DNA of 36,291 bases from a virus, in UHGV virus genome UHGV-0200858. One strand, given 5' to 3'. The notes beneath the pieces were generated by a model, which made no database searches, was not told where the DNA came from, and saw only the letters and a program-made list of their open reading frames with translations. The position numbers and the translations under genes are program-made. Below, one piece after another: positions 1,240-36,291 of the stretch; position 1 is the stretch's first letter, and every line of letters starts with the position of its first letter.

Positions 1240-1275
1240 GCCCCTATCGTTATAATACGCGGTAGGGGCTTTTTT
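1240..1275 (+). terminator. rho-independent terminator (approx)
   Basis: GCCCCTATCG ... CGGTAGGGGC stem followed by a T-run, after the 978..1223 gene. Confidence 0.6.
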
Positions 1276-2968
1276 GTTTGGAAATGGTATGAAAACTAAA
1301 CTGTATTCGTATATTCGCTTCTCGTCTATGCGTCAGAATGATGGTTCGAGTTATGAACGACAAATCAGGATGGCTAGAGAGATTGCGGCAAAGTATGACC
1401 TTGAACTGGTAAATGATTATCAGGATCTGGGTGTATCTGCGTTTAAGGGTGCTAACTCTAAAACAGGTGCGCTATCTCGTTTCCTTGATGCAATTGGTAG
1501 ATCCGTTCCTGTTGGTAGCTGGCTATTCATTGAAAACTTGGACCGTTTATCCCGTGCCGATATTGTCAGTGCGCAGGAGTTGTTCCTTTCGATCATTCGT
1601 CGGGGGATCACTATCGTTACGGGTATGGATAACAAGATCTACTCGCTGGATACTGTTACCGCTAACCCGATGGACCTGATGTTCTCCATCCTTCTATTCA
1701 TCCGCGGTAACGAGGAAAGCCAGACTAAGCGCAATCGTACTAACTCAAGCGCATTGATTAAGATTAAAGCTCATCAAGAAAATCCACAAAATCCGGCTGT
1801 TGCAATCGAGGAAGTTGGAAAGAATATGTGGTGGACTGATACCACATCTGGTTATGTGCTTCCTCATCCGGTCTTCTTCCCTATTGTTCAGGAGGTTGTG
1901 GAATTACGGAAGAATGGACGTTCAACCGCCGAAATACTGGATCACCTTAACGAGACATATACACCACCACCAGCGGTTAGTAATAAGAAACATTCAAAAT
2001 GGTCACGGGCAATGGTTGAAAGATTGTTCCATACCCGCGCTTTGATTGGTATCAAGGAAGTCTCGGTAGATGGCGTTAACTATGAGTTAAACAATTATTA
2101 CCCGCGTGTTATTGATGACCCTACGTTCTATCACCTTAAGAAAAATATTGGTGCTAGAGCATGGAACTTCGGAGACAAGGAAGAAGTTAAACCGATCCCC
2201 CTGCTTAGTGGTATTGGCCTATTGAAATGTGATCATTGCGGTTGCGCTATGGTTAAAGTGAAGGGAACGAACAAACGTTCTGACCAGTATCGTTATACAT
2301 GTGATGCGACCCGTTCACGTAGACTTGATTGCGAGCATCCAAACTGGAGTTTTCGAGGTGATCAATTAGAGAAAGCTGTATTGCAATTGCTGGCTGATAA
2401 AATCTGGATTGCTGAGGATAAGGCTAACCCGGTTCCGGCGTTGAAAGTACAGATTGATGAAATATCACGCAAGATTGATAACCTGATCGCCCTTTCTGCT
2501 ATGACAGGAGCAACGAAGGAACTAGCCGATCAGATTACTGCCCTTAATAGCGAGCGTGAAACACTCTACAATCAGATTAAGATGGCAGAAGAGGAAATGT
2601 ATTCTGTAGACTCTCAAGGCTGGGAGAAGCTCGCAGAATTTGATTTAGAAGATGTTTACAATGAGGAACGAATCAAGGTTAGATTCAAGATTAAGCAAGC
2701 TCTAAAGCGGATCGGGTGTAGCAGGATTGACAGAAACAAAAACTTGTTTGTACTGGAATACATCGATGGAAAGACCCAGAGAGTTGTAATAGAAAATTCA
2801 AGAGGAACGAGGAAAGGACAAATATTTGTCGATTTGAAGACTATCAATGATAGGCAGATTCTGGAAAGTAACGGGCTTGTTTTGCATCCATGTTTAGACA
2901 TGCTGACAGATAAAGACTGGAAACCAGAAGAGGAAATACCAGGTCCATTACAGGAATTTGGAATTTAA
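1274..2968 (+). CDS. large serine recombinase (resolvase/invertase N-terminal catalytic domain + recombinase domain + zinc ribbon + coiled coil)
   Basis: N-terminal YSYIRFSSMRQ...R motif typical of serine recombinase catalytic domain; central Cys cluster CDHCGC...C...C (zinc ribbon); C-terminal coiled coil; 564 aa is typical of the large serine recombinase family. Track start is a TTG; first ATG is 15 nt downstream (about 1289). Confidence 0.85.
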   Translation: MFGNGMKTKLYSYIRFSSMRQNDGSSYERQIRMAREIAAKYDLELVNDYQDLGVSAFKGANSKTGALSRFLDAIGRSVPVGSWLFIENLDRLSRADIVSAQELFLSIIRRGITIVTGMDNKIYSLDTVTANPMDLMFSILLFIRGNEESQTKRNRTNSSALIKIKAHQENPQNPAVAIEEVGKNMWWTDTTSGYVLPHPVFFPIVQEVVELRKNGRSTAEILDHLNETYTPPPAVSNKKHSKWSRAMVERLFHTRALIGIKEVSVDGVNYELNNYYPRVIDDPTFYHLKKNIGARAWNFGDKEEVKPIPLLSGIGLLKCDHCGCAMVKVKGTNKRSDQYRYTCDATRSRRLDCEHPNWSFRGDQLEKAVLQLLADKIWIAEDKANPVPALKVQIDEISRKIDNLIALSAMTGATKELADQITALNSERETLYNQIKMAEEEMYSVDSQGWEKLAEFDLEDVYNEERIKVRFKIKQALKRIGCSRIDRNKNLFVLEYIDGKTQRVVIENSRGTRKGQIFVDLKTINDRQILESNGLVLHPCLDMLTDKDWKPEEEIPGPLQEFGI

Positions 2969-3004: not shown

Positions 3005-3030
3005 AAGGGGTACAGATGTACCCCTTTTTA
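3005..3030. terminator. bidirectional hairpin terminator between convergent genes (approx)
   Basis: AAGGGGTACA GAT GTACCCCTT hairpin flanked by A-run and T-run, between the recombinase (+) and the 3042..4226 (-) gene. Confidence 0.6.
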
Positions 3031-3041: not shown

Positions 3042-4226
3042 TTAGGCAGCGTCTAAAGGGCTTAAATCAAGTTCTAGGTCTTCCGGTTCCAAATCAGCTA
3101 ACTGTGCATTCATCCACTTAGCTAAATCTTCATCGGTTACGACAAAATCCGGTTTTTCTTCCCATTCATTAAGATACATCGGACGATCTGGATTTGCTGC
3201 GATATATTCATTAATGAAGTTTAATGCTTTCTTGAGAGTTTTAATCGGGCGTGTTTCCGTCCATCCATCCGGTACATCATGTTTTGAGGCAGTCTTACCC
3301 TTAACATGAATCTTTAACCCTTTCTCTAAGTCGATTGCTTGCCATCCCTTTTCAAACAGATGATTGAATATCAATTCATGTTTGTATGTGGATAATTTGG
3401 CTTGTTGTTGCATTCTCTTTTTAGAGTTGGAGGCGAAACCGATTTTAATAAATTCATCTCCTAATTTCTGAATATAGAGATAAGTCGGACGTGTCTTGTC
3501 AATTCTTCTTAGATTATATTCACCTGTTTCTAATGAACGTTGGTTTGAAAGGCAATCTGGACAAATCAGGATTCCACGGTCGCAAGGTTCACGGGTAGTT
3601 AAATCCCAATCCCCATGATGCGGACAATTACAGCGCAAGAGTGTCTCTCTTACTCCCTTCTCTTCTGACAACCAACAAACGAAGGTGTATCCGAATTCTT
3701 TACACAATTCCTTAATCTGTGCTTCTCTCTTAGCTCTCAATTCAGTGAGCGTATTACATCCGTTTCTACGAGCCAGATTGCTCTCTTTGGTGCAGCATGA
3801 ACAGTTTAAATTTCTACGGAATGCCAGATTAAGAGGGATAGTGAATTCTTCGTTGTGATTCAAGCAGAGAAATTTTGCTTTGGTTCCTTTGACGTGATTG
3901 TATTCACCATCCCAACCTAAAAACTGTTTCCCTTCCTGTTTCCCTCGTTCGGTTAGCTGGATTTTATATCCTTCCTCATTCCTTTTAAGGCTTCCCCCAT
4001 TGATTTGATTTAACTGTTTCAGTGCATGAATGCTGGAAAGTCCGGTAGGTTGATATGACACCTGAAAACGGGCTTCTACTCCTGATACATACGGTAAAAC
4101 AAAACCATCGAAGGTTAATCCGTGTTTCTCACACTGTTTAATGATTCTGGCTTGCACTTCTTCCGGTGTCTTCTGGTTTGGGTGAGTCTTAACAAAAACA
4201 ATCTCGTTTGCAAATGCTAGTTTCAT
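3042..4226 (-). CDS. GIY-YIG-like (T5orf172-type) domain protein with N-terminal Cys/His zinc-ribbon-like repeats; putative homing-endonuclease-like nuclease
   Basis: C-terminal half contains YLYIQKLGDEFIKIGFASNSKKR...E motif resembling GIY-YIG/T5orf172 fold; upstream CxxC/CxC/HH clusters (LNCSCC, RCNCPHHG, CPDC); paralogous to the 4381..4950 product. Confidence 0.55.
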   Translation of the reverse strand: MKLAFANEIVFVKTHPNQKTPEEVQARIIKQCEKHGLTFDGFVLPYVSGVEARFQVSYQPTGLSSIHALKQLNQINGGSLKRNEEGYKIQLTERGKQEGKQFLGWDGEYNHVKGTKAKFLCLNHNEEFTIPLNLAFRRNLNCSCCTKESNLARRNGCNTLTELRAKREAQIKELCKEFGYTFVCWLSEEKGVRETLLRCNCPHHGDWDLTTREPCDRGILICPDCLSNQRSLETGEYNLRRIDKTRPTYLYIQKLGDEFIKIGFASNSKKRMQQQAKLSTYKHELIFNHLFEKGWQAIDLEKGLKIHVKGKTASKHDVPDGWTETRPIKTLKKALNFINEYIAANPDRPMYLNEWEEKPDFVVTDEDLAKWMNAQLADLEPEDLELDLSPLDAA

Positions 4227-4279
4227 AGTAGTTTCCTCAAAAATTATAAGTTCACTACTATTTATTGAAGAGAATTATC

Positions 4280-4310
4280 TCACTATTGCATCCTCACTAA
4301 CTTTGATATA
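4280..4310 (+). promoter_or_regulatory. sigma70-like promoter candidate for the 4381.. operon (approx)
   Basis: TTGCAT - about 17 nt - TATAAT upstream of the 4381 start, in the divergent intergenic region. Confidence 0.35.
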
Positions 4311-4380
4311 TAATCCGCGACCCTAAAGTTACAAACCAACCATATTGAGGGTTTTGCCTATAAGTTAAAGTGAGGTCTAT

Positions 4381-4950
4381 ATGATTCCAGTAATGGCTAA
4401 AGATATTGTTTTTACTCCTAAATCATCCCGTGCTGTAACTCCACCAGCATTAGAACAACGCATTCTTACTCACATCAAAGATAATGACTTACCGTTAGTC
4501 TTTCATGGCTTTCTGGGTGAGTTTAAAGGGCTTCACACGAGAATTGCTCTTACATGTACTCGCTGCGGTGATAGAGCCGACAAATCAGCTACTAACCTGC
4601 TTAATGAAGGCAAACGCTGTGTATGTTTCAAGAGTGATTATTTTCAATATAAAGCGGGTGTACCATATCTCTATGTGATGCAATCCGGCGATATTGGTAA
4701 ATTTGGTGTAACAAAATCGATTATCAAACGTAGGGTTAATCTGGGCTTACGTAATCCCGGTCATAACTTTGATATTGTCTATGCTCGTGAAATGCCATCA
4801 ATGAAACATGCGCTAGCCACTGAGCGAACAATAAAGAGAATGTTGGATGTGGGTATAGGCGGGATTGAATACGGCAAAACTGAAACATTCCACTACTGCA
4901 ATAAATCACTAAACAATATAAAGAATATTGCAAGTGTGGAGTGGAACTAA
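4381..4950 (+). CDS. GIY-YIG-like (T5orf172-type) domain protein with zinc ribbon (189 aa)
   Basis: CTRCG...CVC Cys cluster followed by YLYVMQSGDIGKFGVTKS...RRVNL...E motif; stop overlaps the start of the downstream helicase gene (TAATG). Confidence 0.55.
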   Translation: MIPVMAKDIVFTPKSSRAVTPPALEQRILTHIKDNDLPLVFHGFLGEFKGLHTRIALTCTRCGDRADKSATNLLNEGKRCVCFKSDYFQYKAGVPYLYVMQSGDIGKFGVTKSIIKRRVNLGLRNPGHNFDIVYAREMPSMKHALATERTIKRMLDVGIGGIEYGKTETFHYCNKSLNNIKNIASVEWN

Positions 4951-6440
4951 TGCAAGATATTAACATTCATTTTCAAGATTACAGTTTCGTTAAGGTTGAA
5001 TGCTCTCCTTCTATCGGAATGGAATTAAGAGATTATTTCTCGTTTGAGGTTGAAGGGGCTAGATTTAGCCCCCGCTACAAATATTCCGGCTGGGATGGAA
5101 AGATAAGACTGTTTACGCATGAGAACACCTTACCAATCGGATTATTGAAAACATTGGGTATCTTCGCTAAAAACATGGGCTATAGCGTATGGGTAGACCC
5201 CAGATTGCTTGAGAAGGAAGATGTAACCAAAGAATCAATTGATTCATGGATTGACTCTTTAGAAGTGTATTCCGGTAGCAATAAAATCAATCCTTACTGG
5301 TATCAAAGAGAGGCAGTATTTCAGGGTATCCATAATCGCCGTAGAATGCTGGTTCTTCCTACCAGTGCCGGAAAGTCATTGATTGCTTGTATGCTGTCTC
5401 GTTGGTACTTAGAGAACTACACCGGAAAGATTCTAATCATTGTCCCGACTACATCGCTGGTGGTTCAAATGAGGGATGATTTTGTCGATTATAGGCTATT
5501 CCCTTATGAAGCAATCCATACAATGATGAGTGGTAGCGGGAAACATCCGGGAGACAGGTTAATCACTGTTTCAACATGGCAATCAGCTTGCAAGATGCCT
5601 CCTGAATGGTTCCGACAATATGGAATGTTGATAGTTGATGAATCGCATCGTGCCAGCGCAAAGAATATCACCAATATCATCAACGGAATGAATCATTGTC
5701 AGTTTAAAATCGGTATGACTGGTTCCCCGAAAGAATCAAAGTGCCATTTAATGCAATATGTCGGGTTGTTCGGTGATATTCAGAAGATAGTAGCAATCAA
5801 GCAATTGATGGATGACGGACAAGTTACCCAGCTTAAAATTAATGCTCTCTTCCTTAAGTACAAAGATGAAGAATGTAAAGCAATGCGGGGCAAAGATTAT
5901 CAGGAAGAGATTAAATTCATCAATGCTCATAAGGTAAGGAATAAACTGGCTTGTAATTTGGCCTTAAAACTCGCCAGGAAGCAAGAAAACGTATTTTTGA
6001 TGTTCCGGTACTCTAAGCATGGAAAAATGCTTTATAATGCGTTACAGCGCGTTTACGATAAGGTTTATTACGTTTCCAGTGAGATTACCACCGCCGAACG
6101 CGATGCCTTAAAGAAAATGGCTGAAAATGAGAAAGGATTGATTGTAGTTGCCTCCTATGGTGTTTTCTCTACTGGCGTTTCAATTAAGAATCTTCATCAT
6201 GTCATTTTCGGTCATCCAGTGAAGGAATCAACCATTGTCCGGCAATCAATAGGACGTGCTCTTAGGAAACATGGTAGTAAAGCAATTGCGTATGTGTGGG
6301 ATTTGATAGATGTGATTTGTTCGAAAGACAAGAAAGGAAAATATACACGCAAGAATTATGCTTTAACTCATGGCCTCCAGAGAATCAATACTTACATATC
6401 AGATCGCTTCGAATATGTAACGAAAACAATCGAGATTTAA
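4941..6440 (+). CDS. uvsW: SF2 DExH-box helicase, UvsW-like
   Basis: Walker A LPTSAGKS, DExH box IVDESH, motifs ILIIVPTT, VYYVSSE, IVVASYGVFSTG, QSIGRALRKHGSK; overall layout and several motifs recall T4 UvsW (from memory, not searched). Track start is GTG; likely ATG start at about 4950 overlapping upstream stop. Confidence 0.8.
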   Translation: MELMQDINIHFQDYSFVKVECSPSIGMELRDYFSFEVEGARFSPRYKYSGWDGKIRLFTHENTLPIGLLKTLGIFAKNMGYSVWVDPRLLEKEDVTKESIDSWIDSLEVYSGSNKINPYWYQREAVFQGIHNRRRMLVLPTSAGKSLIACMLSRWYLENYTGKILIIVPTTSLVVQMRDDFVDYRLFPYEAIHTMMSGSGKHPGDRLITVSTWQSACKMPPEWFRQYGMLIVDESHRASAKNITNIINGMNHCQFKIGMTGSPKESKCHLMQYVGLFGDIQKIVAIKQLMDDGQVTQLKINALFLKYKDEECKAMRGKDYQEEIKFINAHKVRNKLACNLALKLARKQENVFLMFRYSKHGKMLYNALQRVYDKVYYVSSEITTAERDALKKMAENEKGLIVVASYGVFSTGVSIKNLHHVIFGHPVKESTIVRQSIGRALRKHGSKAIAYVWDLIDVICSKDKKGKYTRKNYALTHGLQRINTYISDRFEYVTKTIEI

Positions 6441-6483
6441 TAAATAGGGGCTTTAATGCCCCTTTATTCTACGGAGATTAAAA

Positions 6484-6747
6484 ATGATTAGCTTTAAACG
6501 TTTTTTGGTTGAGGCCGCTATTGACGGTTTTATGAGTAAGATTTATTCTTGTAATACTATCGAGGGATTAAATGAACTTGAGGCATATTATGAGAAGCGC
6601 AAGAAAGAAACAGAATTGAAACCTGCTGATGATATTTCGATCCGTGATGCCATCGCCGGACGACGCAAGCAACTGGAAGCGGAGAACGAGCCGGATGAGG
6701 AGCCAGAAGAGGATTTTTCTATCATCAATTTGTGCCAGATAAAATAA
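6484..6747 (+). CDS. small acidic protein, possible UvsW.1-like helicase partner (87 aa)
   Basis: Immediately downstream of the helicase, acidic C-terminus (EAENEPDEEPEEDF); position and size recall T4 uvsW.1; followed by terminator. Confidence 0.35.
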   Translation: MISFKRFLVEAAIDGFMSKIYSCNTIEGLNELEAYYEKRKKETELKPADDISIRDAIAGRRKQLEAENEPDEEPEEDFSIINLCQIK

Positions 6748-6775
6748 AAGCGCCCATGTGAGGCGCTTTTTTGTT
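6748..6775 (+). terminator. rho-independent terminator (approx)
   Basis: AAGCGCC CATGTG AGGCGCTTTTTTG hairpin plus T-run after the 6484..6747 gene. Confidence 0.65.
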
Positions 6776-6791: not shown

Positions 6792-7145
6792 TCAGCCATT
6801 CCATCGAGATTTTTTCGACCTGCTATCAATATGCGTAAAGGTTTTATATTTGCCTAGACCATATTGATTGGGATATTTCCCGTTAAGATAAGCATGGACA
6901 ATATCAGGAGAAACACCCTTGATCACAATGTCACACGCTCGACCGCGAACATGGTAGCTATTGGTTGCCCCGCCTACATTCTTGTTATGAGTCGGACAAC
7001 GGTTCCCACTGTTAATAATTACTGGTTTCCCGAAGTGTTCTCGTACATCCTCAAGAATTACCAGTAATTCAGCATCGATAGTATCATAATCACATTTTCC
7101 GCATTTACATTTGAATTCCTTGCGGGAAAAATGCTTACTTAACAT
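6792..7145 (-). CDS. endolysin, peptidase M15 family (L-alanyl-D-glutamate / VanY-like zinc peptidase)
   Basis: Motifs SRKEFKCKCG, SGNRCPTHNKNVGGATNSYHVRGRACDI and FTHID match the H-x6-D ... H zinc site of M15 peptidases; no signal peptide. Confidence 0.8.
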   Translation of the reverse strand: MLSKHFSRKEFKCKCGKCDYDTIDAELLVILEDVREHFGKPVIINSGNRCPTHNKNVGGATNSYHVRGRACDIVIKGVSPDIVHAYLNGKYPNQYGLGKYKTFTHIDSRSKKSRWNG

Positions 7146-14274: not shown

Positions 14275-16701
14275 TTACATCTTACGACGCTGTGCGTCTT
14301 CTACCGCCTGAGCAACTAACTTAGCGTGACGTTTGATAGCATCCATAACCATCTTGTCTGAGCTATTAACGTTGCCGTTAATGTTCAAAGGCGCATTAAC
14401 TTCAATCGGCTGAGAGTTACCACCGCCTGATTTTTGAGCAGATAAGAAGTCTTTCAAATCACCGTTAGTACGCTGATCAACTACTCGTTCACCCTTATCA
14501 AGCAACCATGTACCCTCACGAGGGATGTTATCGATACCATCATGAGCCATACCACTAACGTTAGTAGACTTGATGTTTGCGATGTTCCCCATGTTCTGAG
14601 AAACAGCCAATGCAGCAGCAGCGATCTTTTGTCCTGTGGTAACGTTGGTTGGATCGTTCCATGCATCGGTAGCAGCCGTCCACATGTTCACCGTCGCTTG
14701 TCCAATGGAGAATGCCTTATGAGCATTGAAAGCCATCTGCATAGCTTTAGTGTTTTCCTGCCCGAAGAGAGTCATTGCAGCAGCAAAACCGCCATACATA
14801 TCATCGGCTATTGACTGTCGAGCATCAGCGTATTTCTTCTCAATTGCAGCCATTCGTTTTTGATGGTTTTCATTGAGTTTTTCTAATGCAGCCATCCGTT
14901 TAGCCGGATCATTAATACCATCAATCTTGAGTTTATCGGTTTTATAATCTTGTTCAGCGTCCGATTTCTCTTTATCGATTGCATTAAATTTAGCAAACGG
15001 GTTATTCGAGTCCTGATAGTCTAAACCATTGGTCAACTGATTGGTTTTAAAACCATCCATTCCATGCAAAGAATCTTCAATCTGTGAATAACTTTGTTCG
15101 GTATCATTCACACGACGCATATATTCTTCGTAGGAGATAGCCTTACCATCAAGTAACCGTTTATGGCTTTCTAACTCGTTGTCCCTGATTTGTTGTAATT
15201 GTGTTAAAGCATTCAGAGCATCAACAGGATCAGCACCTAAAACCATTTTGTATACGTTTTCAGTATTCTGATCGATTAAGGATTGGCGTTTCGCGGCTGC
15301 GTCTTGCTGCGAGATTAACCCCAGATCTAAAGCAGTGTCCAGATCTTTCAAGCTGGCTTCTAACTGCTTATTCTGAGAAGCAATAGACGCGGCAACCTGC
15401 CCTTGCAATTTAACATCAAGTGCATTCAGTCGCTTGATTGCATCCTCACGTTCTTTCTGTGCTTTCTCTGCGGCTTCCTTAGCTTTTTTAGCTGCCTCTT
15501 CCGCTTTCTTGCGTTTTTCTTCCTCGGCTTTCTTCTCTTCGGCAGACGGACCCAATGAAGCTGGTCTGACTGGTTTATTTGGTAGAGTCAAACTACCGCT
15601 TGATTTGGTTGTCAGATGTTCACCAGCATCGACTACAATCAGAGCACCACTTGAAGTTTTATAAGACCCACCAAAACGTTTCTTAAATCCTTCAACATCA
15701 AAGCCAGCAGTACGAGGATCGACACCAGCACCACGGATCGCGGCCTTTTCCCAATCTGCCAGATTATTCCAACGCTTTTCTTTATTGTACTTGTCAATAA
15801 TCTTTTGAGCGTCTTTATGGTTGGCGTTAAGAATACCACCAGTTGCGGTCTTACCTTCTTTATTCAGTCGGTCTAATGCCCTGAATAGAGAACTCTTTTC
15901 CCAATCAATATTAAACCATTCAAATAACCAGTTTAAGCTATCAACCAAAGGACCAGTAATGGTCATGCCGACACCTTTCAGGTTATTTTCCAGCTTATTG
16001 ATATTTTGAGAAAATTTATCATATTTTTTAGCGTTTTCTTCGGTGACGTTAACAGATTGATTCTGAATAGCGATCATCGCCTCTTGAGCAGTATTATATT
16101 TCTCAAGCTGGCTGGTCATATGGCTTGAATCACTGGCTAAAGATTCCATCATGAACTTGATTTCAGCCATTGATTTTCCGGCTTTCTTCATGTCATAGAA
16201 CACTTGGATCGCCGCTTTCATACCACCTTGCGGATCTGTCATGAAGTGAGCATAGTTTTCTAACTTAAGACCAACCGATTCTAAGTCATCAGCAATACCA
16301 CCACCATTAGCCCACGCATCACCCATTTTATCTAAGGTGTCTTTGTTGATATCGCCAAATTTTTCAACTGTTAGGCCAGTGCCAGAAAATTCCTTTTCTA
16401 GTCTTTGAAGGGATTCAATCGAGAGTCCGGTCGCCTTAGATACTTCTGAATACTGTTTAACGTATTCCGCACCAGCTTTAGCGGCTGCAACCACTGCGGT
16501 CGCAACTAAGCCAATACCACCAGCAGCCAAACCAGCAGAGCCAGCAATACCACGAAGAGATCCAGTCAGACCAGACAAGCCACCACCAAAATCAATATTA
16601 CTTGCCTTTTCAGACAAACTATCGAGAAGGTCAGCGGCTTCATTGGTGCTTCTCCTTAGACCTTTATTATCCCCTTCTATTGTTACTATATGTTTTGTCA
16701 T
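14275..16701 (-). CDS. tail tape measure protein (808 aa)
   Basis: Large protein after tail chaperones; Gly/Ala-rich hydrophobic N-terminal segments, long K/E-rich coiled-coil centre (AEEKKAEEEKRKKAEEAAKKAKEAAEKAQKERE), C-terminal region. Confidence 0.8.
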   Translation of the reverse strand: MTKHIVTIEGDNKGLRRSTNEAADLLDSLSEKASNIDFGGGLSGLTGSLRGIAGSAGLAAGGIGLVATAVVAAAKAGAEYVKQYSEVSKATGLSIESLQRLEKEFSGTGLTVEKFGDINKDTLDKMGDAWANGGGIADDLESVGLKLENYAHFMTDPQGGMKAAIQVFYDMKKAGKSMAEIKFMMESLASDSSHMTSQLEKYNTAQEAMIAIQNQSVNVTEENAKKYDKFSQNINKLENNLKGVGMTITGPLVDSLNWLFEWFNIDWEKSSLFRALDRLNKEGKTATGGILNANHKDAQKIIDKYNKEKRWNNLADWEKAAIRGAGVDPRTAGFDVEGFKKRFGGSYKTSSGALIVVDAGEHLTTKSSGSLTLPNKPVRPASLGPSAEEKKAEEEKRKKAEEAAKKAKEAAEKAQKEREDAIKRLNALDVKLQGQVAASIASQNKQLEASLKDLDTALDLGLISQQDAAAKRQSLIDQNTENVYKMVLGADPVDALNALTQLQQIRDNELESHKRLLDGKAISYEEYMRRVNDTEQSYSQIEDSLHGMDGFKTNQLTNGLDYQDSNNPFAKFNAIDKEKSDAEQDYKTDKLKIDGINDPAKRMAALEKLNENHQKRMAAIEKKYADARQSIADDMYGGFAAAMTLFGQENTKAMQMAFNAHKAFSIGQATVNMWTAATDAWNDPTNVTTGQKIAAAALAVSQNMGNIANIKSTNVSGMAHDGIDNIPREGTWLLDKGERVVDQRTNGDLKDFLSAQKSGGGNSQPIEVNAPLNINGNVNSSDKMVMDAIKRHAKLVAQAVEDAQRRKM

Positions 16702-17475: not shown

Positions 17476-17946
17476 TTAGACTTTCTGGAAAACAGCTTGT
17501 TTAACCGGAGCACCATCTACTACAAAGGTGAAGGTACGGCCTACTACAGCATCCTCACCACCAGTCATGGTAGTTTTAGACAGGAAGCCGTTATAAGCGA
17601 TGTGCACACCAGATTTTTTCGTAGCATCGATGTAGTAAGCAATTTTAAGCTGTACGCGCTTACCGTCTTCGGTTGCTTTAATCAGTTTTTCGTGTACTTC
17701 GTTACCCGGCATGTAGTTGATCGAAAGTTCGATATCCGGTACAGACATACGACCAACCAGCTTACGGTTATAAGCACCAGAGAAGTTAGGAACATCGATA
17801 GTAGAACGTTCTACACCAGTTTCCGGGAACGCTGCGCATTCTGGAATTTCCAGATAAGTTTCAGCGTCAAGATCAACGTTAGCTACATCTTCTTGCAGAA
17901 ACAGACCAACGAGGCCACCAGAGAAAATATCAAATTTAGTAGTCAT
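17476..17946 (-). CDS. major tail tube protein (156 aa)
   Basis: Position directly upstream of G/T chaperones and tape measure; strong SD; followed by strong terminator; codon usage typical of a highly expressed structural gene. Confidence 0.6.
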   Translation of the reverse strand: MTTKFDIFSGGLVGLFLQEDVANVDLDAETYLEIPECAAFPETGVERSTIDVPNFSGAYNRKLVGRMSVPDIELSINYMPGNEVHEKLIKATEDGKRVQLKIAYYIDATKKSGVHIAYNGFLSKTTMTGGEDAVVGRTFTFVVDGAPVKQAVFQKV

Positions 17947-18034: not shown

Positions 18035-21000
18035 TCATTTACAGGATTTAATAGCCGCAAGTTCAGCTTTAACAGCTTTCAACTCTTCGTTCATCGCATC
18101 ATACTTAGTCGTTAATTCCTGAAAGGCTTTCACGAAAAGAGCATTGATACTAGAAACAGAAATAGTTTTAATTTCTCCTGGATTTTCGGTATCTCCATCG
18201 CTGCAAACGTGCACAGCTTCCGGCATAACTTTTTCCACATCTTGAGCAATGACACCTAATTCGCGTCCAACCACTGTATCATCAGAAAGTGATTTAACTT
18301 TATCGTAGGAATATACGGTTAAGCTGTTTAATTTATCCAGCGCACCTTCTTCCAATTCTTCCTTGTTGATCTTAAGACGTTCATCAGATCGAATATGCAC
18401 ATCGTTAAAGCTACCGTTACCCGGCGTGTAAAAGAACCCATCGTGATGGAACTCAAATACAGCTTGAGGGTGTCCGTTATCAGGTGAGTTTTCCGCAGAT
18501 CCAACACGAATAATTGCTTGTCCCCAATTGTTAGGGATACGACGCATACCAAAATCGACGGCAGTTGTATACCCTTGATTGGTGATTAAACTTCTTGCTT
18601 TAACAATCGGATAATAACAGTCTTGTCCAACATAGCCATGATCGACGAATATTGGCGCTTCCACTCGCCACTGATTACCCCAATCACCTGGTTGACTAGC
18701 GGTCCAACGTTCACCATGAACATATAATCGAGCGTTATTAACATGAACCATTTCGACGCCTTTTGGACTTAATGCAATATCCCCAGCGTTCGTAAGATTT
18801 ATCGCGGCATTAGTAGCATAGCTATAGAACGCTAATCCATTATCACCACCGCCTTTACCAATATACCAGTTGTTGTTGTCAGCACACGTACCCAACAAAT
18901 ATACAGACGAATCACCACTTTCGGCATTCATGATAATTGCATCAGATCCGCGATTAATTTTAAGTTTACCAAAGAAGGAGTTTTTAATGGTATTATCACC
19001 CAATCGTTCAAATTCTGCGAAAAATCCTTTTGAGTCACGAAGACTTAAAACGTTATTTCGACCTGTATTGCTTGCCCCCCAATGGACGAGTTCCATATAG
19101 TCCATAGATTGACGAGAACCAGCTTTAAAGAAAAGATTGTCCTCAAGACGAGTGCTACCATCAATCCCCAGATGTAAACACCGAGCGGTTTCAGTACCAC
19201 CTAAATATAATCCACCGTCCGCAAAATCATAGCTGAATGGTCTGCGATTATTCCAACTACCAAAAGAATCTTTTAAATCGGTAGTAAGAATATGGAAGCT
19301 AGAACCATCATTGCGTAACATCAAACCATAGTTACCGCCTTTGACAGCCAAACGAGCATTTTCAGACAATGCGACTTCGCTATTCATTACAATTTTCTGG
19401 CCTTTACCACCAGTAATATGTAATTCACCATCTTCAATCAGGTTTATCGAGTTTTGACCGTTATCGTTCCACCAAATAAAATCTTTGGTCTGCGCATCAC
19501 CGAAGCCAAACCAACCATTACGAACATCTGTACCAGTTCGATAATCAAAGAAGTTTAAGTGGCATGATTCGTTTGGACCACGACGAAAATCAATTGCTGA
19601 GTTTCCACCTAAACCGCCATCAATGGTCATTCTACGAATATGCAAACCGGACGATGCCGAAAGCAATAATTGTTGGTTAACATCTTCATAACCAGTTGCA
19701 AGGCGATATGACTGATCATCAACAGTTTCATGCCAGATTGTAGCTGGTGCAGAACTACGGAAGCGACGCAACATTTTCTTAGCATTTGTTTGTTGTTCGT
19801 TCAAATGCTCAATGTCATATTGGCCTTGATGGTTTCCGCCAAAATTTAACGTCCCACGGTTGCTAAAGTTATTAAACGATGAAATGTTAAGAGCATCAAA
19901 AATTTCATCTGCAACAGGTTTTTCACCGCCCAGGTATTCAGGAGTATCCAACAGGTTTAAAGAAACACCACCGGAAGAAACTTGATATTCTGCTAAAACA
20001 AATCCTGTATGTGCACCATAGTAAGCGTAAAGATCGTAATTATCACCATCGGTAGGAATTGCGCAAAAATATTGTTCGTAATACCAAATGCTATAATAAG
20101 CATTGAATACAACACCTTTCGGGCTATTGTTGCCGCAACGGATCACCAGTTCAATAACATTGGCTTGTCCATTCTGTCCGACGTTATAACCGTTACCACC
20201 CACTAAACGGATCTTAGCCGTACGACCGTGTTGTTGTGGCATTGTCAAAGTGCCTAGTTTAAACCAACCGCCCTCGACCCCAAAATTAAGCGTCTTCTGG
20301 AAAAGTCGGTCAATTTCTGCTTTCGAATATGCGCCAATTTCGGCAGGAGTAGGTTTATCACCCTCGTGATACATGCGGTGAGAATATGCCAAATGACCCA
20401 ATTCATCATAGCCGTATGTTCTTACAGTAGCATGTGGATTAGACCCATAAGTGAACTCGAAGCCACGAGCATGATTAACACCGGATGGATGTGGAACATG
20501 CAAGATCATAGCAATATGATCAGCTAGATCATTGGTACGGAATGCACCAAAGTAATCAAGATTACGCGCACTTGGATCATCAAAATAGTTTGCGGTCTTA
20601 GACAGCAAATAACCATCAGTGTAAGTGTTTACGTGTTTTTTGATGTACTTACCGTCACTCGATCCGTCGGCTGCATCAATACGGCTTTCTAAGCGCGCCA
20701 GTTCAGAATCAGTGTAAGACTTGTTATTGTCAACTTTGCTATGAATTGCCGTATTTTTGGCTTCAACATCACGGGTTAATGCTGCGACGTTATCCGCTGC
20801 CTCTTGCTTATTGGCTGCAATCACACCAGTAAGGTTATTGTAAGTGTCGGTTAATTGATTTTCCGCATAAGTTTTATTATCAGCGATAGTGCGATCAGTC
20901 TCGGCCTTAATCAAATCAACTTTGTCATTGATTGCTTTGTCATTGATTGCGATGGTTGCATCAGTACGGGATTTAATATCATCAACTTTTTTATTGATGC

Positions 21001-21463
21001 GGGTGTCCAGTTCCTGAGTTGCTACAGCAGCCGCATTTTTATTAGCGGTGATGGTATCGGATAATTCAGATTTAACACCAGCCAGTTCGGAAGCTGCTTT
21101 ATTTTTATTGGCTTCGATTGTCGCGTCGGTTTCGCGTTTAATTACATCAACTTTATTGTTAATTTCTGCGTGGTTGTTGGCAATAGTAGAATCGGTAGTT
21201 TGTTTAATTTCATCTACTTTAGCGTGAATATTGCGGTCGTTTACTGCAATTGTGCTATCTAATTCTTGTTTGTTAGCATCAACTTTAGATTCTAGTGCCG
21301 CGTGAGTTTCAGGAGAAACAGAGATTTGAACTACTTCATGATCTCGGTCTTTGGTGAAAATAACATGGTCTTTAAGGTTGATTGCTACCTCACCGACCTG
21401 TAATTGTTCCGGCGTTGGTTTTTTGCCAGAAACACTAGTTCGTTTAAATTGGATTGATTGCAT
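18035..21463 (-). CDS. side (L-shaped-type) tail fiber with C-terminal S74-family intramolecular chaperone domain (1142 aa)
   Basis: N-terminal tail-fiber anchor-like motif (KKPTPEQLQVGEVAIN), tandem about 22 aa repeats (xVDxIKxxTDxTIAxN), C-terminal SDERLKINKEE ... LGVIAQDVEKVMPEAV motif characteristic of self-cleaving intramolecular chaperone domains of endosialidases and T5 pb1. Confidence 0.75.
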   Translation of the reverse strand: MQSIQFKRTSVSGKKPTPEQLQVGEVAINLKDHVIFTKDRDHEVVQISVSPETHAALESKVDANKQELDSTIAVNDRNIHAKVDEIKQTTDSTIANNHAEINNKVDVIKRETDATIEANKNKAASELAGVKSELSDTITANKNAAAVATQELDTRINKKVDDIKSRTDATIAINDKAINDKVDLIKAETDRTIADNKTYAENQLTDTYNNLTGVIAANKQEAADNVAALTRDVEAKNTAIHSKVDNNKSYTDSELARLESRIDAADGSSDGKYIKKHVNTYTDGYLLSKTANYFDDPSARNLDYFGAFRTNDLADHIAMILHVPHPSGVNHARGFEFTYGSNPHATVRTYGYDELGHLAYSHRMYHEGDKPTPAEIGAYSKAEIDRLFQKTLNFGVEGGWFKLGTLTMPQQHGRTAKIRLVGGNGYNVGQNGQANVIELVIRCGNNSPKGVVFNAYYSIWYYEQYFCAIPTDGDNYDLYAYYGAHTGFVLAEYQVSSGGVSLNLLDTPEYLGGEKPVADEIFDALNISSFNNFSNRGTLNFGGNHQGQYDIEHLNEQQTNAKKMLRRFRSSAPATIWHETVDDQSYRLATGYEDVNQQLLLSASSGLHIRRMTIDGGLGGNSAIDFRRGPNESCHLNFFDYRTGTDVRNGWFGFGDAQTKDFIWWNDNGQNSINLIEDGELHITGGKGQKIVMNSEVALSENARLAVKGGNYGLMLRNDGSSFHILTTDLKDSFGSWNNRRPFSYDFADGGLYLGGTETARCLHLGIDGSTRLEDNLFFKAGSRQSMDYMELVHWGASNTGRNNVLSLRDSKGFFAEFERLGDNTIKNSFFGKLKINRGSDAIIMNAESGDSSVYLLGTCADNNNWYIGKGGGDNGLAFYSYATNAAINLTNAGDIALSPKGVEMVHVNNARLYVHGERWTASQPGDWGNQWRVEAPIFVDHGYVGQDCYYPIVKARSLITNQGYTTAVDFGMRRIPNNWGQAIIRVGSAENSPDNGHPQAVFEFHHDGFFYTPGNGSFNDVHIRSDERLKINKEELEEGALDKLNSLTVYSYDKVKSLSDDTVVGRELGVIAQDVEKVMPEAVHVCSDGDTENPGEIKTISVSSINALFVKAFQELTTKYDAMNEELKAVKAELAAIKSCK
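20684..21301 (-). repeat. in-frame tandem coding repeats in the tail fiber N-terminal shaft (approx)
   Basis: Protein shows 8 or more consecutive repeats of the pattern N-K-x-x-x-D-x-x-I-x-x-K-V-D-x-I-K-x-x-T-D-x-T-I; corresponding DNA shows repeated GCGATGGT / GTTGATTTG-type units. Confidence 0.6.
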
Positions 21464-21536: not shown

Positions 21537-22370
21537 TTAATATTCACCGAAGTCGATCCGGTCATGGATAGAAACGGCTTCAATCTCGGCTGGTGTCGGT
21601 TTTTCTTCTGTGGAATACACTTTCACCCATCCCGAATTACCGTCTTTCTGGACTGTGCGAACTCGTAAACGTGGTGCGCCGGAAGCGGTGCAAGTTAATT
21701 GCCATCCACCATCTTCATTAGGTTGAACGTGAATTAGTGAAGTATCAGCACTAAATGGATTAGATGCGCTCGATCCCTGATAAGTTACGAAACGGTTTCC
21801 GGCTAATGCTTCGCTATCAATCGGACCTGTGAATGGATGTACACCAGCACCCAAACCAAAATCACCTTGACGTAAGATCCGGCCTTCGGTGGCAATACCA
21901 CGGTCGAGAATCCCACCATCAGGATCTAATTTAAATTCGATGGTAGTAACTTTGTTATCGCTACCACGGGTTTTGTGTGATGTGACGTATGCATCAAAAA
22001 TGACGTAGTATCCTGTGTTAGCAGCACTGTAACCAGAGTTCACAACATAGAACATACGGAAGCGTAAAGGAGTTTTATCATTCACCGCTTTCATCAACAT
22101 GTCTTGATGTTCATCATCCAGAACACGGTTTAACGTGAGTGTCGTCGGTTCCAGTTTACGATAACCAGCAAGTTTCCCCGTAGCGTCCTGATCATACTCT
22201 TCTAACGTCTGGATCTCTGTGGATTCGGTGATCGTAGGGAATGCTGCGATGTTCTCGATAGGACTAAATGCAGGATCGAAAAAGTCCGGCTGGTTATCCA
22301 CCATAGTAGACACGGAGACTTCAACATGCGACCCCGTGAAAATGTCTAAGTTATCTTGTGTAATATTCAT
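21537..22370 (-). CDS. virion structural protein (277 aa), fiber- or neck-associated
   Basis: Located between head-completion genes and tail fiber; shares a KPTPAEI(E/G)A motif with the tail fiber; Gly-rich beta-like composition. Confidence 0.4.
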   Translation of the reverse strand: MNITQDNLDIFTGSHVEVSVSTMVDNQPDFFDPAFSPIENIAAFPTITESTEIQTLEEYDQDATGKLAGYRKLEPTTLTLNRVLDDEHQDMLMKAVNDKTPLRFRMFYVVNSGYSAANTGYYVIFDAYVTSHKTRGSDNKVTTIEFKLDPDGGILDRGIATEGRILRQGDFGLGAGVHPFTGPIDSEALAGNRFVTYQGSSASNPFSADTSLIHVQPNEDGGWQLTCTASGAPRLRVRTVQKDGNSGWVKVYSTEEKPTPAEIEAVSIHDRIDFGEY

Positions 22371-23226: not shown

Positions 23227-25230
23227 TCATTCAGCGCCAATCTGAAGAACTTTCAGAGCTTCCGGCTGAGTAACAACATAATCCAGATCTACCCAGATAC
23301 GCGGAACGATAGCAGACTGTGCACGGTAGGTAGTGTCGTCCATATCCAATTCCAGACCGCCCCACTCACCGATAGTGATGCCGGAGAAGTCACCCAGAAC
23401 GATGTGATCTGCCGGAATAACACCAGAAGTAACTACTTCGTAACCAGCCAGTTTGCCGTTTTCGATGATATAACCGGAAACGCCGTTATCTTTCAGGGTA
23501 GATTCCAGTTCGGCAGCAGTTGCACCGCTCATCGCAAACTTGATCGCCTGAGCAGGAACGCCAGCGTCGGTCAGTTTAGCAATTTCTTTCAGGAAATCTT
23601 TGTAAGAGAAAGCAGCTTTCTTCTCAACGCGGCTAGCGTCTACCAGTTGTTTAACCAGACCAGCCGGACCACGAGCGTTATCTTTATCAGACAGAATCAG
23701 TTGTTCCAGTTTGATGCGAACAGCCTGGTTGATGTGATCAGTGATCAGGGTAGCGATACCCGGAACGGTTTTAATGCTCTGACGGCTGATCGGGTTGCCA
23801 CCAGCAAAAGTCTTAGGAGACAGTTTCACGTTTGCAAATTCAGCTTTGCCTTCCGGTGCAGCACCGTTTTCATCAACGAAGCCGAAAGCGTCAACGCTGG
23901 ATTTAGTCATTTTTGGAATAGCGGTCGGAGCAGTCAAGCCACTATAAACAGTCACACCCAGACGACCCAGAACGGATTCCGGCATCAGCATTTCGATGTA
24001 GGATTCAGTCAGCAGTTTTTCGTCGGTGATAGCAGTCAGGTCAGCTTTGGTGTTACCAGCAGCAGCAGCACGCATAGCAGCAGCCGGAACGAATACAGAG
24101 CCACCGCGAGCAGCACGACCACGCTGCATAGTTGCAGTAGCAGCCATTGCGGAAAATTCAGCTTCGTTAGCACCCAGAGCAGCACCATCTACCAGAGAGC
24201 GAATTACGTTGTTCAGGTCAAAAGTTTTTTCCATTTTAGAGTCCTTAATTTGTTCGTTATTACGTTGAGCATTGGTAATGTTATTTAGTGCCTTAGTGCG
24301 GAATGCTTCCGGCGTCATATCTTTAACTGCCAATGCGCGTTTTAATTCTTCGTCGTCAATATTTAGTTCGCGTGCAATTTCGCGAATTTCTAATTCGTCT
24401 TCTTCGGAACGTTCAGCCACTTCAATTTTTTCTTCTTCAACCGGAGCAGCTTCACGTTCTTCTGTCATTTCTTCTTCTTCCCGAACAGTTCCACGATCAT
24501 CATCAGAACTTTCAGAATGTTCAGCGTCTTTTCCGTCTTCGAGATTTTCATTTTCTTCATTCTCTTCAACTTGGCGCTCTTGAGTTTCTTCTACTTCCGG
24601 TTCTTTATTTTCTTCTACCGGAGTTTCTTCAACCTGAGCGACTTCTTTTTCTTCGTCTTTAACTTGTTCGATTTGTTCTTTAGTCATATCGCGTTTAGCC
24701 TCCAAATTAACTGTGATAGTATTTAGAGAGCGATTTAGACCGACAGAATCGTCTGCGGGCACAGACACCCATGAAATCTCATGAGGAATCCACTTAGTAA
24801 CAATCAATTGTCCTTTAGCGTAATCGATGTGATATTCTTTAATGTCATAACCGACAGAAATTTTTTCCATCGTACCTTCAATGACTTTATTACGAATATC
24901 ATTAGCCAAAGTACCATGCTTAGAGAATTTAACAGTAGCACGGCCTACTTTATCCGCATCGATTCGAGCGTTACAGACAACACCAATGTGATTATCGAAA
25001 TTATGATTGAACAGCAACGGAGCGTTATTATTCAGGCGAGACAGATCAACCGCTTCCGGTGTATGTACCAGAATTTCATCTAATACCACCATCTCTTGAT
25101 TTTGCTCATCCCAGAATTGGCGCTGGTAAGGCTGTTCACTGGAGAAAGCAATTTCAAATTCGTATTGATCGTTATGCCCTTCGTTAATAACTCCACCGTA
25201 ACCGTTAAGATCGCGGCGAAATTTAAGCAT
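23227..25230 (-). CDS. prohead protease - scaffold - major capsid protein fusion (HK97-fold), 667 aa
   Basis: N-terminal about 170 aa resembles HK97-type prohead protease (LLFNHNFDNHIGVV ... ISWVSVPADDSVG); central highly acidic E-rich segment typical of scaffold/delta domain; C-terminal about 330 aa has the composition of an HK97-fold capsid protein. Confidence 0.75.
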   Translation of the reverse strand: MLKFRRDLNGYGGVINEGHNDQYEFEIAFSSEQPYQRQFWDEQNQEMVVLDEILVHTPEAVDLSRLNNNAPLLFNHNFDNHIGVVCNARIDADKVGRATVKFSKHGTLANDIRNKVIEGTMEKISVGYDIKEYHIDYAKGQLIVTKWIPHEISWVSVPADDSVGLNRSLNTITVNLEAKRDMTKEQIEQVKDEEKEVAQVEETPVEENKEPEVEETQERQVEENEENENLEDGKDAEHSESSDDDRGTVREEEEMTEEREAAPVEEEKIEVAERSEEDELEIREIARELNIDDEELKRALAVKDMTPEAFRTKALNNITNAQRNNEQIKDSKMEKTFDLNNVIRSLVDGAALGANEAEFSAMAATATMQRGRAARGGSVFVPAAAMRAAAAGNTKADLTAITDEKLLTESYIEMLMPESVLGRLGVTVYSGLTAPTAIPKMTKSSVDAFGFVDENGAAPEGKAEFANVKLSPKTFAGGNPISRQSIKTVPGIATLITDHINQAVRIKLEQLILSDKDNARGPAGLVKQLVDASRVEKKAAFSYKDFLKEIAKLTDAGVPAQAIKFAMSGATAAELESTLKDNGVSGYIIENGKLAGYEVVTSGVIPADHIVLGDFSGITIGEWGGLELDMDDTTYRAQSAIVPRIWVDLDYVVTQPEALKVLQIGAE

Positions 25231-25275
25231 TTAATCACCTTTAATTAATTGGGGGCATTGCGCCCCCGTTGGTTA

Positions 25276-26787: not shown

Positions 26788-26797
26788 GATTTACCCC

Positions 26798-27292
26798 TTA
26801 TCGCGTAAGACGTAATTTGATATTTTTAATAGGGCTAATTCCCTGTTTACGTCGTTCGGCTTGAATTACTTTAGATAACTGACGTTCATAATCGACTTTT
26901 AGAGTCTGGAGAACACCCAATGACTCATAGGCGAAAGTATTCCCTTTCACGGTCATTGCAGATAATGCGGCTTCGTCCCCAGATAAACGGGCGAAAATAA
27001 CTTGCTCGATTAAGGCGATAGTTTCCCGCAGATATTCTTTTTTGGATTGTTTGGCGAATACTGGCAAAACAGTTAATTCCTGCATTGACACCAGTTCATC
27101 ATCCAAAGTTATTACGATGGTATATTTACCCTCGGCAAAATCTAAGGTTTTAATCTCGTGATTAGCCGGAGAATCATCAACCTGATAAATGATACCTTTA
27201 TTATTTCCTACCTGAATTGTTACACCCTCTTCATTCGCCAGCGTGATTTTTTCGCCTTTACGAATTACTAAGGGAATTAGTTCTAAACTCAT
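26798..27292 (-). CDS. hypothetical protein between terminase and portal (164 aa)
   Basis: ORF with SD; unusual position; no recognisable motif. Confidence 0.4.
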   Translation of the reverse strand: MSLELIPLVIRKGEKITLANEEGVTIQVGNNKGIIYQVDDSPANHEIKTLDFAEGKYTIVITLDDELVSMQELTVLPVFAKQSKKEYLRETIALIEQVIFARLSGDEAALSAMTVKGNTFAYESLGVLQTLKVDYERQLSKVIQAERRKQGISPIKNIKLRLTR

Positions 27293-27364
27293 AATTACCC
27301 CTTATTTAATTGTTATTGGATTAACAATATTTAGGAGTAAGCCGCCCCGAAGGACGGCGAGTTA

Positions 27365-29269: not shown

Positions 29270-29356
29270 TCAAATACCCTCATTACGAAATATGAAGGTA
29301 TTTATTAAATTGTTGATATTTTGATAAATATGGGTATTAAGATTTAAGGGGGGTGT

Positions 29357-29959: not shown

Positions 29960-29961
29960 TA

Positions 29962-30219: not shown

Positions 30220-30226
30220 TTCTCTA

Positions 30227-30254
30227 GGCCAATCCTTCGGGGTTGGCTTTTTTT
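30227..30254 (+). terminator. rho-independent terminator (approx)
   Basis: GCCAATCC UUCG GGGUUGGC hairpin with UUCG tetraloop followed by a run of 7 T. Confidence 0.65.
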
Positions 30255-30264
30255 ATACCTACAG

Positions 30265-30293: not shown

Positions 30294-30301
30294 AAAAATT
30301 A

Positions 30302-31219: not shown

Positions 31220-31241
31220 TTTTATTTATAATAGAAATTTA

Positions 31242-35730: not shown

Positions 35731-36291
35731 TTAGGACACATCGAATTCATCATCTTCTTCGGATTCTTCTTGTTCTTCCGGTTCATCCATTAACGGTAAT
35801 TCTTCTTCGTCCTCGTCTTCACCTAATTCTGCATTTTCGAACATATCCCCTACTTCATTTAAACGACGCTCGATGATCTCCCTTAGCTTATTCTTCAACG
35901 TTTTCTGATCGGTTGCAGATTCGAGAATTTCTAAAGCATCGATTGTGGCGATCTGCAAAATAGTCTGCTTCACTTTCCCGCAGTATTCCGCTAGTTCCTG
36001 TTCTACATACCCTACTGGAATAAGTTGGTTCATCGCTTCCTGGTTCTCGCGTTCGGCAGCATCTGCTAAAGCACGTTCACGGCGTAATTTCTCGACATCG
36101 ATTTGTTCCTTAATAGAAGTTTCTTTGAGCGGGTTAATGATATTTTTCAAGACCCATTCTGTACCCTCTTTTGCTGGTACGCGTCGTGTATTGGTATTAA
36201 ATGGCATTCCTCGTTGCTGCCATTTCTTAGCTGCGTTGATTGTATAGCCGTATAAGCGGGAAATTTCTGTAAGGGTTAATTCTTCTTTCAT
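35731..36291 (-). CDS. Nu1-like winged-HTH DNA-binding protein, putative terminase small subunit (186 aa)
   Basis: N-terminal LTLTEISRLYGYTINAAKKWQQRGMP resembles the lambda Nu1 HTH (QNWQEQGMP), followed by EKLRRE coiled coil and acidic C-terminus; the window ends exactly at the start codon. Confidence 0.5.
   Translation of the reverse strand: MKEELTLTEISRLYGYTINAAKKWQQRGMPFNTNTRRVPAKEGTEWVLKNIINPLKETSIKEQIDVEKLRRERALADAAERENQEAMNQLIPVGYVEQELAEYCGKVKQTILQIATIDALEILESATDQKTLKNKLREIIERRLNEVGDMFENAELGEDEDEEELPLMDEPEEQEESEEDDEFDVS

Follow-up and report, generated by a model that had tools for sequence, protein, structure and literature searches.

UvsW of bacteriophage T4 is a monomeric 3′–5′ superfamily 2 (SF2) helicase that migrates Holliday junctions, regresses replication forks, stabilizes D-loops, and unwinds R-loops (PMC3016281). 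The T4 protein is active in E. coli in the absence of other T4 proteins, rescuing rho, nusG, and rnhA rnhB defects (PMC5909445). Phage T5 encodes D10, a UvsW/XPB-related SF2 branch-migration helicase that is 20–30% identical to UvsW (PMC5180179); since T5 is a siphovirus, UvsW-like helicases are not confined to myoviruses. T5 is virulent, and according to one account the phage itself supplies most of the genes that its replication requires. Here, we analyzed UHGV-0200858, a viral genome stretch of 36,291 nucleotides (nt; hereafter, the window), which carries adjacent uvsW and uvsW.1 genes of the kind known from T4 and from Krischvirus phages such as RB49. Comparison with bacterial genomes identifies the window as nearly all of a predicted temperate E. 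coli prophage of ~37 kb, in which uvsW is carried as accessory cargo.

The helicase open reading frame (ORF) spans 4941..6440 on the plus strand when read from a mechanical GTG start at 4941, which yields 499 amino acids (aa). The real start of uvsW is probably the ATG at 4950 (4950..6440, +; 496 aa), since UvsW of both T4 and RB49 begins there and the NCBI annotation of related prophages uses it for a 496-codon gene. The A of this ATG is the final base of the TAA stop codon of the upstream ORF (TAATG). Pfam identified UvsW_N (PF21241), a MotA-like double-wing domain, at 8.2e-36 (residues 6–86, profile positions 1–81 of 81), along with ResIII, DEAD, and Helicase_C. A phmmer comparison with the T4 UvsW structure (PDB 2OCA) aligned query residues 6–498 with chain residues 2–501, end to end, at E = 1.9e-184. 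The protein is 53% identical to the copy in the T4 genome and 72–76% identical to UvsW of Krischvirus RB49 and G5211, with an overall nt identity to Krischvirus uvsW of ~76%; all other phage groups fall below 60% aa identity. In a six-sequence alignment that includes T4, RB49, and G5211, GKS (K142), D230-E231-x-H233, G258-S259, and Q432..G435-R436..R439 are invariant, and SF2 motif I (GKS), motif II (DExH), and motif VI (QxxGRxxR) are all intact in the window protein. A loop near residue 455 is four residues shorter than in T4 UvsW.

An original prediction made from the sequence had placed ORFs at 4941..6440 (+) and 6484..6747 (+) and had called the first UvsW-like on the strength of five blocks: RRRMLVLPTSAGKS, ILIIVPTT, IVVASYGVFSTG, RKHGSK, and VWDLID. 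Both ORFs are present at these positions, all five blocks occur in the translation with counterparts in T4 UvsW, and the full-length match to 2OCA bears out the assignment. The prediction had weighed low identity to UvsW and a better match to Snf2 or RecG as the opposing outcome; the next family in rank is instead of the XPB type. Among candidates from other SF2 families, the closest solved relatives, XPB/Rad25, reached only ~1e-14 as against 1e-184, and Pfam SWI2_SNF2 gave a weak overlapping match. RecG did not match the helicase among solved structures or NCBIfam models. By alignment, then, the helicase is assigned as a true UvsW orthologue and an ordinary member of a known family. These genes are currently annotated in bacteria just as "DEAD/DEAH box helicase family protein", and the prophage copies could be renamed UvsW in bacterial genome annotation.

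The window lacks the setting in which UvsW operates in T4. The original prediction had reported no visible polymerase or primase, and PHROG and Pfam scans agree: no polymerase, primase, replicative helicase, single-stranded DNA-binding protein, recombinase, or known initiator was recognized in the window. Likewise, UvsX, UvsY, gp32, gp46/47, gp59, and the gp43/41/61 replisome were not recognized among the window ORFs of at least ~80 aa that these scans covered. Because none of its partner genes was recognized, the predicted system is not part of the T4-like (Straboviridae) recombination-dependent replication machinery. Host-dependent replication of the element, as the original prediction had it, is no more than plausible, since an iteron-like array at 32754–32877 suggests an unrecognized origin and initiator.

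We then analyzed where uvsW resides and how it is distributed. It lies in the interval between a large serine recombinase gene (1274..2968, +; PHROG 95 integrase, 2e-62), whose orthologues contain Resolvase, Recombinase, and Zn_ribbon_recom domains, and a Peptidase_M15_3 endolysin gene (6792..7145, −; Pfam and PHROG) at the end of the late operon. A relative of the element at 91–94% identity occurs in 60 of 5,426 complete E. coli genomes. Among the 56 complete E. coli genomes having both flanks, this interval is a variable slot that holds uvsW in 17 (~30%); other copies contain a lone 65-aa ORF or nuclease-like genes without uvsW. The original prediction had suggested a recombination or branch-migration function in a host-dependent replicon. 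With uvsW present in only ~30% of the related E. coli prophages, a core role in replication or recombination of the replicon is excluded, and the gene is accessory cargo. The same prophage family also occupies the same chromosomal site in Salmonella enterica, where relatives were found by a protein-cluster search and contig look-ups and where uvsW alleles are 65–82% identical to that of the window. The three largest protein clusters hold 272, 735, and 346 sequences (>1,300 together). Two pattern scans of species-representative bacterial genomes, based on the single protein and on alignment A1, respectively, gave no confirmed match with a method that requires exact short peptides; the E. coli and Salmonella representative genomes are evidently without this prophage.

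The T4-derived DNA in the slot has ragged, nested right-hand ends and always retains the T4-like gene order. In the loci compared (numbered with L), uvsW stands alone in L001, L010–L018, and L023–L026; it is followed by uvsW.1 in the window and in L008 (IMG/VR), by uvsW.1 and a uvsY.-2 (DUF2685) fragment in L028 (7838–7966), by a 55-aa UvsY fragment identical to RB49 residues 81–135 in E. coli FDAARGOS_1267 (L005, 7427–7594), and by a complete uvsY in Salmonella enterica (L021/L022, 11530–11940). The Salmonella UvsY is a complete protein of 136 aa and is 74% identical to RB49 UvsY. uvsW is the sole constant T4-derived gene, while uvsW.1, uvsY.-2, and uvsY are variable passengers. It is intact in 14 of 14 prophage copies examined (496–497 aa), and Nei–Gojobori ratios of nonsynonymous to synonymous substitution rates (dN/dS) are 0.03–0.09 among copies of the L001 allele type, which is 83% identical to window uvsW, and 0.10–0.18 between allele types. 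All the prophage copies examined show purifying selection on uvsW, whose intactness and dN/dS argue for a function in the prophage setting.

The second ORF (6484..6747, +; 87 aa) matched Pfam UvsW-1 (PF11637; 5.5e-22, 78.1 bits, cut-off 25) and the nuclear magnetic resonance structure of T4 UvsW.1 (2JPN; 6.7e-26). Chance cannot account for the matches of either ORF. It is acidic, with ~20 Asp/Glu as against 13 Lys/Arg counted from the translation. Its first 64 residues are identical to those of RB49 UvsW.1, and identity to T4 UvsW.1 is 67% over 64 residues. The 43-nt spacer between uvsW and uvsW.1 holds a short GC hairpin, AGGGGCTTTAATGCCCCT (6446..6463, +), identical in RB49 and G5211, which was inherited together with the cassette. 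The identification of a small acidic ORF in the position of uvsW.1 was therefore correct, given PF11637, 2JPN, and its native place behind the conserved hairpin. A complex between T4 UvsW and UvsW.1 was reportedly described by Nelson and Benkovic in 2007. The suggestion that UvsW.1 serves here as partner of the helicase fared less well. The last nine residues, SIINLCQIK, are read-through into prophage DNA at a junction that removed the native stop codon; window uvsW.1 was not found in complete E. coli genomes at megablast level, and most uvsW-carrying prophage relatives are without it. Given this absence from most relatives, the destroyed stop codon, and a tract that is ~96% identical to Krischvirus, UvsW.1 probably came along recently as a passenger rather than being a partner that the helicase requires.

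Judging by its similarity, the T4-like block uvsW–uvsW.1–uvsY.-2–uvsY is a capture from virulent myoviruses related to Krischvirus (RB49-like), of which the window holds a two-gene piece. Compared in 150-nt segments, nt 1–1300 of window uvsW are 62–80% identical to RB49/G5211, with 57% over the last ~200 nt. A near-identical tract lies at 6405..6718, where 302 of 314 nt (96%) agree with RB49/G5211, with four mismatches in 6405–6656; Krischvirus homology stops at 6718, inside the stop codon native to uvsW.1. Among E. coli alleles, the commonest (L001 15567–17057; KSC64 and ~16 other complete genomes) is a chimera, its 5′ 800 nt being window-like (85–97%) and nt 800–1300 being 96–99% identical to RB49. 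Segment trees interleave prophage and Krischvirus alleles, and also show a prophage-specific middle segment and short-loop C-terminus. The prophage uvsW thus appears to be a long-resident lineage in which patches have been replaced time and again through recombination with RB49-like phages during co-infection. The 96–99% RB49-like tracts record, at base-pair resolution, a recent transfer from a virulent myovirus to a temperate siphovirus-type prophage. Cytosine is unmodified in RB49-type DNA, which would explain exchange with Krischvirus rather than with T-even phages.

A second Krischvirus-derived segment was observed in a tail-fibre gene (18035–21463, −; 1142 aa), which is flanked by major-tail-protein-like genes at 21537..22370 and 17476..17946. 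A C-terminal segment of ~2.3 kb (18294–20600) shows 81–84% nt identity to the distal long tail fibre gene gp37 of Krischvirus (MIZ4, KFS-EC). Beyond uvsW/uvsW.1 and this segment, no T4-like DNA was found in the window.

The regulatory surroundings of uvsW differ from those in its apparent source. A candidate sigma-70 promoter, read from the sequence as TTGCAT-17 nt-TATAAT (4286..4314, +), would serve a unit comprising a nuclease-like ORF, uvsW, and uvsW.1, and sits in a 154-nt intergenic region. In E. coli and Salmonella relatives, the −35 element (TTGCAT, TTGCAA, or TTGACA), the 17-nt spacing, and the −10 TATAAT are kept while the spacer sequence drifts. A consensus promoter scan did not list 4286–4314, the −35 element agreeing at three of six positions, and no LexA box was seen by eye in 4227–4380. 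The cargo slot is framed by a terminator-like hairpin after the integrase gene (3005–3026) and a bidirectional terminator-like hairpin between the convergent uvsW.1 and endolysin genes (6746..6770). A late promoter sequence of T4 type, TATAAATA, stands ahead of uvsW in RB49, where the prophage instead has the 3′ end of the nuclease-like ORF, and Krischvirus homology in the prophage begins precisely at the uvsW start codon. From the replacement of TATAAATA and the conserved sigma-70-like promoter, we infer that uvsW may have left the T4 late programme and now depend on host RNA polymerase and overlapping reading frames instead.

The upstream ORF (4381..4950, +; 189 aa) encodes a putative nuclease that matches PHROG 681 ("endonuclease") and combines a CapR zinc ribbon and a T5orf172/GIY-YIG-like part bearing the hallmarks YxYV, GKxG, R, E, and TETF. 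The ORF has four invariant Cys. Its final ~22 residues (HYCNKSLNNIKNIASVEWN) are identical even in homologues that are 41–45% identical overall (P0131–P0135). The 3′ end of this ORF, which holds the translation start region of uvsW, seems to travel with uvsW and not with the rest of the ORF. A divergent CapR and T5orf172/GIY-YIG-like ORF of 394 aa (3042..4226, −) lies within the same slot and matches PHROG 681 at 5.6e-40 and Pfam CapR at 3e-9; its KSC64 counterpart is named "GIY-YIG nuclease family protein" by NCBI (MUG113, 8e-6; T5orf172, 0.014). Genes for unrelated GIY-YIG homing endonucleases lie directly upstream of uvsW in T4 (segE; L007 2058–2675) and in G5211 (L003 2265–2996). Together with the prophage ORF, these may represent three independent insertions of the GIY-YIG superfamily at the uvsW start codon.

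How might the prophage use UvsW? On balance, and with moderate confidence, we favor its use as an optional RecG-like processor of branched DNA and R-loops in the replication, recombination, and packaging of the phage itself, possibly with the adjacent nuclease. The gene would be transcribed from the host-type sigma-70 promoter, overlapped (TAATG) with the nuclease-like ORF and with a terminator behind it. The protein would act alone, as a RecG-like 3′–5′ helicase, since T4 UvsW works by itself in E. coli. It would migrate Holliday junctions, regress stalled forks, and unwind R-loops and D-loops, and would thereby offer optional DNA-branch processing during phage replication, recombination, and packaging, the adjacent nuclease possibly taking part. 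T5orf172 proteins have been proposed to act in recombination (PMC7824862). Several observations weigh against this reading. A lysogen-expressed "moron" or conflict gene would suit just as well a slot that adjoins the integrase and has a promoter and terminator of its own, and part of the low dN/dS could stem from selection in the donor phages, followed by repeated gene conversion into the prophage. Moreover, the upstream nuclease ORF is reduced to its last 35 codons while uvsW is kept in 4 of 14 loci (L010, L015, L016, and L018), so a helicase–nuclease pair is not obligatory. Finally, ~70% of the family does without uvsW, and any benefit is therefore conditional.

A role in inter-phage conflict is the best-surviving alternative, if an unlikely one: the lysogen would express UvsW, together with UvsY in some relatives, against superinfecting T4-like phages. 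This could proceed through premature unwinding of origin R-loops, through an upset stoichiometry of recombination-dependent replication, or through trans complementation of uvsW-loss escape mutants, which would restore their sensitivity to defences such as Shedu. Late-expressed UvsW does shut off R-loop origins in T4 (PMC3016281), and T6 evades Shedu via uvsW mutations (PMC13434031). The location, beside the integrase with terminator-like hairpins on both sides and a host-type promoter, is typical of prophage accessory and defence genes, and uvsW shows presence/absence polymorphism. The sequence also bears traces of repeated Krischvirus encounters, and the prophage shares a Krischvirus-type distal tail-fibre segment. 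UvsY of the Salmonella relatives has no known partner besides T4-type UvsX and gp32, both missing in the prophage; these UvsY copies could, however, be mere passengers, and an incoming phage might just as well be rescued or helped by a homologue already present in its host. PADLOC returned generic SF2 matches only for the helicase (best PbeA, 7.7e-14, partial) and none for UvsW.1 or either nuclease-like ORF. That stolen T4 recombination proteins serve as a weapon or lever against Krischvirus or T-even phages, with the shared homology also aiding further DNA capture, strikes us as quite unlikely.

Lysogenic conversion is distinctly improbable. Here, UvsW would act as an extra RecG-like or R-loop helicase that lets the lysogen better tolerate transcription–replication conflicts, R-loops, and DNA damage, as might fit a unit with a sigma-70-type promoter and terminators. 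T4 UvsW removes R-loops and rescues lethal rho, nusG, and rnhA rnhB defects, yet its expression barely affected antisense transcription in wild-type cells (PMC5909445). RecG, RNase HI/HII, and Rho are already available in E. coli, and uvsW occurs in just ~17 of 5,426 complete E. coli genomes.

That the T4-like DNA is a functionless passenger, the debris of illegitimate and homologous recombination with virulent phages, would suit the variable locus, the ragged nested right ends, the uvsY and uvsY.-2 fragments, and a uvsW.1 without its native stop codon. It is nevertheless very unlikely for uvsW: all 14 copies are intact with dN/dS of 0.03–0.18, also within one allele type; the gene is retained across E. 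coli and Salmonella lineages with alleles 65–95% identical; and the 5′ junction, which falls exactly at the start codon, is conserved and carries a conserved promoter. Scarcely credible is a homing cassette in which the upstream GIY-YIG-like ORF is a free-standing, SegE-like homing endonuclease targeting uvsW, the prophage being reservoir or recipient: SegE is known to target uvsW (PMC2988022), a GIY-YIG-superfamily gene adjoins the uvsW start in T4 (segE, 2-nt gap), Krischvirus G5211, and the window, and gene-conversion tracts are present, but the 189-aa ORF has no sequence similarity to SegE by BLASTP, its family fills this prophage slot without uvsW, its phage homologues (~30% identical) are not beside uvsW in Krischvirus, and the near-identical tracts lie at the uvsW 3′ half and beyond, away from the endonuclease gene. 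The TIGR01453 model is weak on SegE (34 bits) and the G5211 ORF (42 bits), below its 56-bit cut-off, and does not match the window ORF. In cultured phages, the nuclease ORF of the window was not found beside uvsW, just ~30% identical homologues elsewhere.

As for the element itself, the window spans the prophage from its left end to within ~1 kb of its right end, as compared with KSC64, where one annotated prophage gene, encoding a 101-aa hypothetical protein, lies beyond the window end and hence outside the PHROG and Pfam scans. In KSC64, the element splits ycdX beside csgDEFG-ycdZ-ycdY and measures ~38 kb including an insertion sequence, ISVsa5 (IS4 family), within the tail gene region (L001 27616–28824); this copy is probably defective owing to the insertion. 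The best isolated-phage match covers at most 9% of the first 25 kb of the window, and positions 25001–36291 matched no phage record. The original picture of a small siphovirus-type genome stands for the tail and head modules: PHROG and Pfam identified a tape measure (14275..16701), a distal tail protein, a 1248-aa tail tip, and a tail tube of siphovirus type, as well as a 667-aa major capsid protein, portal, large terminase, and small terminase (35731..36291). What needs correcting is its life style: the element encodes a serine integrase and is a temperate, integrated prophage, situated in ycdX in its relatives. The major capsid gene (23227–25230, −) also matches the PHROG "major head and protease protein", which suggests a fused protease–capsid protein. 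Rfam and tRNA scans of the window gave no matches.

The right arm (29357–36291) contains family-less ORFs of 200, 85, 110, 169 (acidic), 64, 343 (acidic, coiled-coil), 80, and 109 aa, and only two genes there have matches, the small terminase and a Rha-type regulator. Two of the ORFs, those of 85 aa and 64 aa, resemble each other (RGRPCRFDREQL.. and ARPVKFTREMI..), and the 343-aa ORF is 100% identical to one E. coli entry, with all orthologues >90% identical. Neither a CI-like repressor nor a replication gene was recognized in this arm, and no Pfam or PHROG match to a replication initiator was obtained there. At least eight iteron-like (T)AGTGTAGG(T)TT repeats lie at 32754–32877, within a 1.2-kb non-coding, AT-rich stretch (32204–33428); 16 matches with at most two mismatches were counted as against 3.0 ± 1.8 expected. 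Further copies occur on the minus strand at 33949–33960, 34987–34998, and 35005–35016, and no copy was found near the uvsW promoter. The array looks like a candidate replication origin or operator array, and given this resemblance, the prophage likely encodes an initiator (or repressor) that the scans did not recognize.

We finally compared the locus with known systems. The RB49 record calls UvsW a functional homologue of an E. coli protein, the name being cut off in the record note, which we take to be RecG, as in Carles-Kinch et al. 1997. RecG is a monomeric SF2 helicase on Holliday junctions, forks, and R-loops, a likeness that would be expected of the window protein, and belongs to a separate family from UvsW. 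The lambdoid nin-region functions Rap/NinG, RusA, and Orf are non-essential, variable, and horizontally exchanged branched-DNA processing functions of temperate phages. They may be analogous, but they belong to unrelated families at another genomic position and are nucleases or mediators rather than a helicase. A literature search of incomplete coverage found no paper on UvsW in a temperate prophage or on a ycdX serine-integrase prophage. We also sampled 40 of the 2,740 isolated-phage records matching UvsW, taken in even steps down the ranking. All sampled records matching at least 84% of the query were genomes of 141–356 kb, and the sole sampled record below 100 kb, Erwinia RF1 (46 kb), matched 68% of the query at 24.6% identity and carries a UvrB-like annotation. 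Since the sampled close matches all stem from genomes of this size, a close UvsW orthologue in a 37-kb temperate phage is unusual.

Like segE–uvsW in T4 (PMC2988022), the window has a GIY-YIG-superfamily ORF immediately upstream of and co-oriented with uvsW; unlike segE, this ORF comes from a different branch (T5orf172 with a CapR zinc ribbon) and also occupies the slot without uvsW. Unlike T5 D10, the protein of the window is closely orthologous to UvsW, and its phage is temperate and has no recognized replisome. The nearest phage relative is the uvsW–uvsW.1–uvsY.-2–uvsY block of Krischvirus (RB49, G5211, JSE, and Phi1), which has the same gene order and hairpin and is found in a ~164-kb virulent myovirus with head genes (inh, hoc) on one side and baseplate genes on the other, whereas the window has part of the block, in a cargo slot behind a sigma-70-type promoter rather than TATAAATA. 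With T4 UvsW (2OCA/1RIF), the window protein shares UvsW_N, two RecA-like SF2 domains, the C-terminal helical region, and a full-length alignment, and with T4 uvsW/uvsW.1 the gene order. It differs in residing in a 37-kb temperate siphovirus-type prophage without UvsX, UvsY, gp32, gp41, gp59, or gp43, in lacking the T4 late promoter, and in a UvsW.1 with a nine-residue foreign tail. An intact uvsW under purifying selection without the T4 machinery, in a prophage family spread through E. coli and Salmonella, offers a natural test of UvsW function on its own. In summary, the proteins are ordinary UvsW and UvsW.1 family members, their genomic home is unusual, and the gene traffic is recent.

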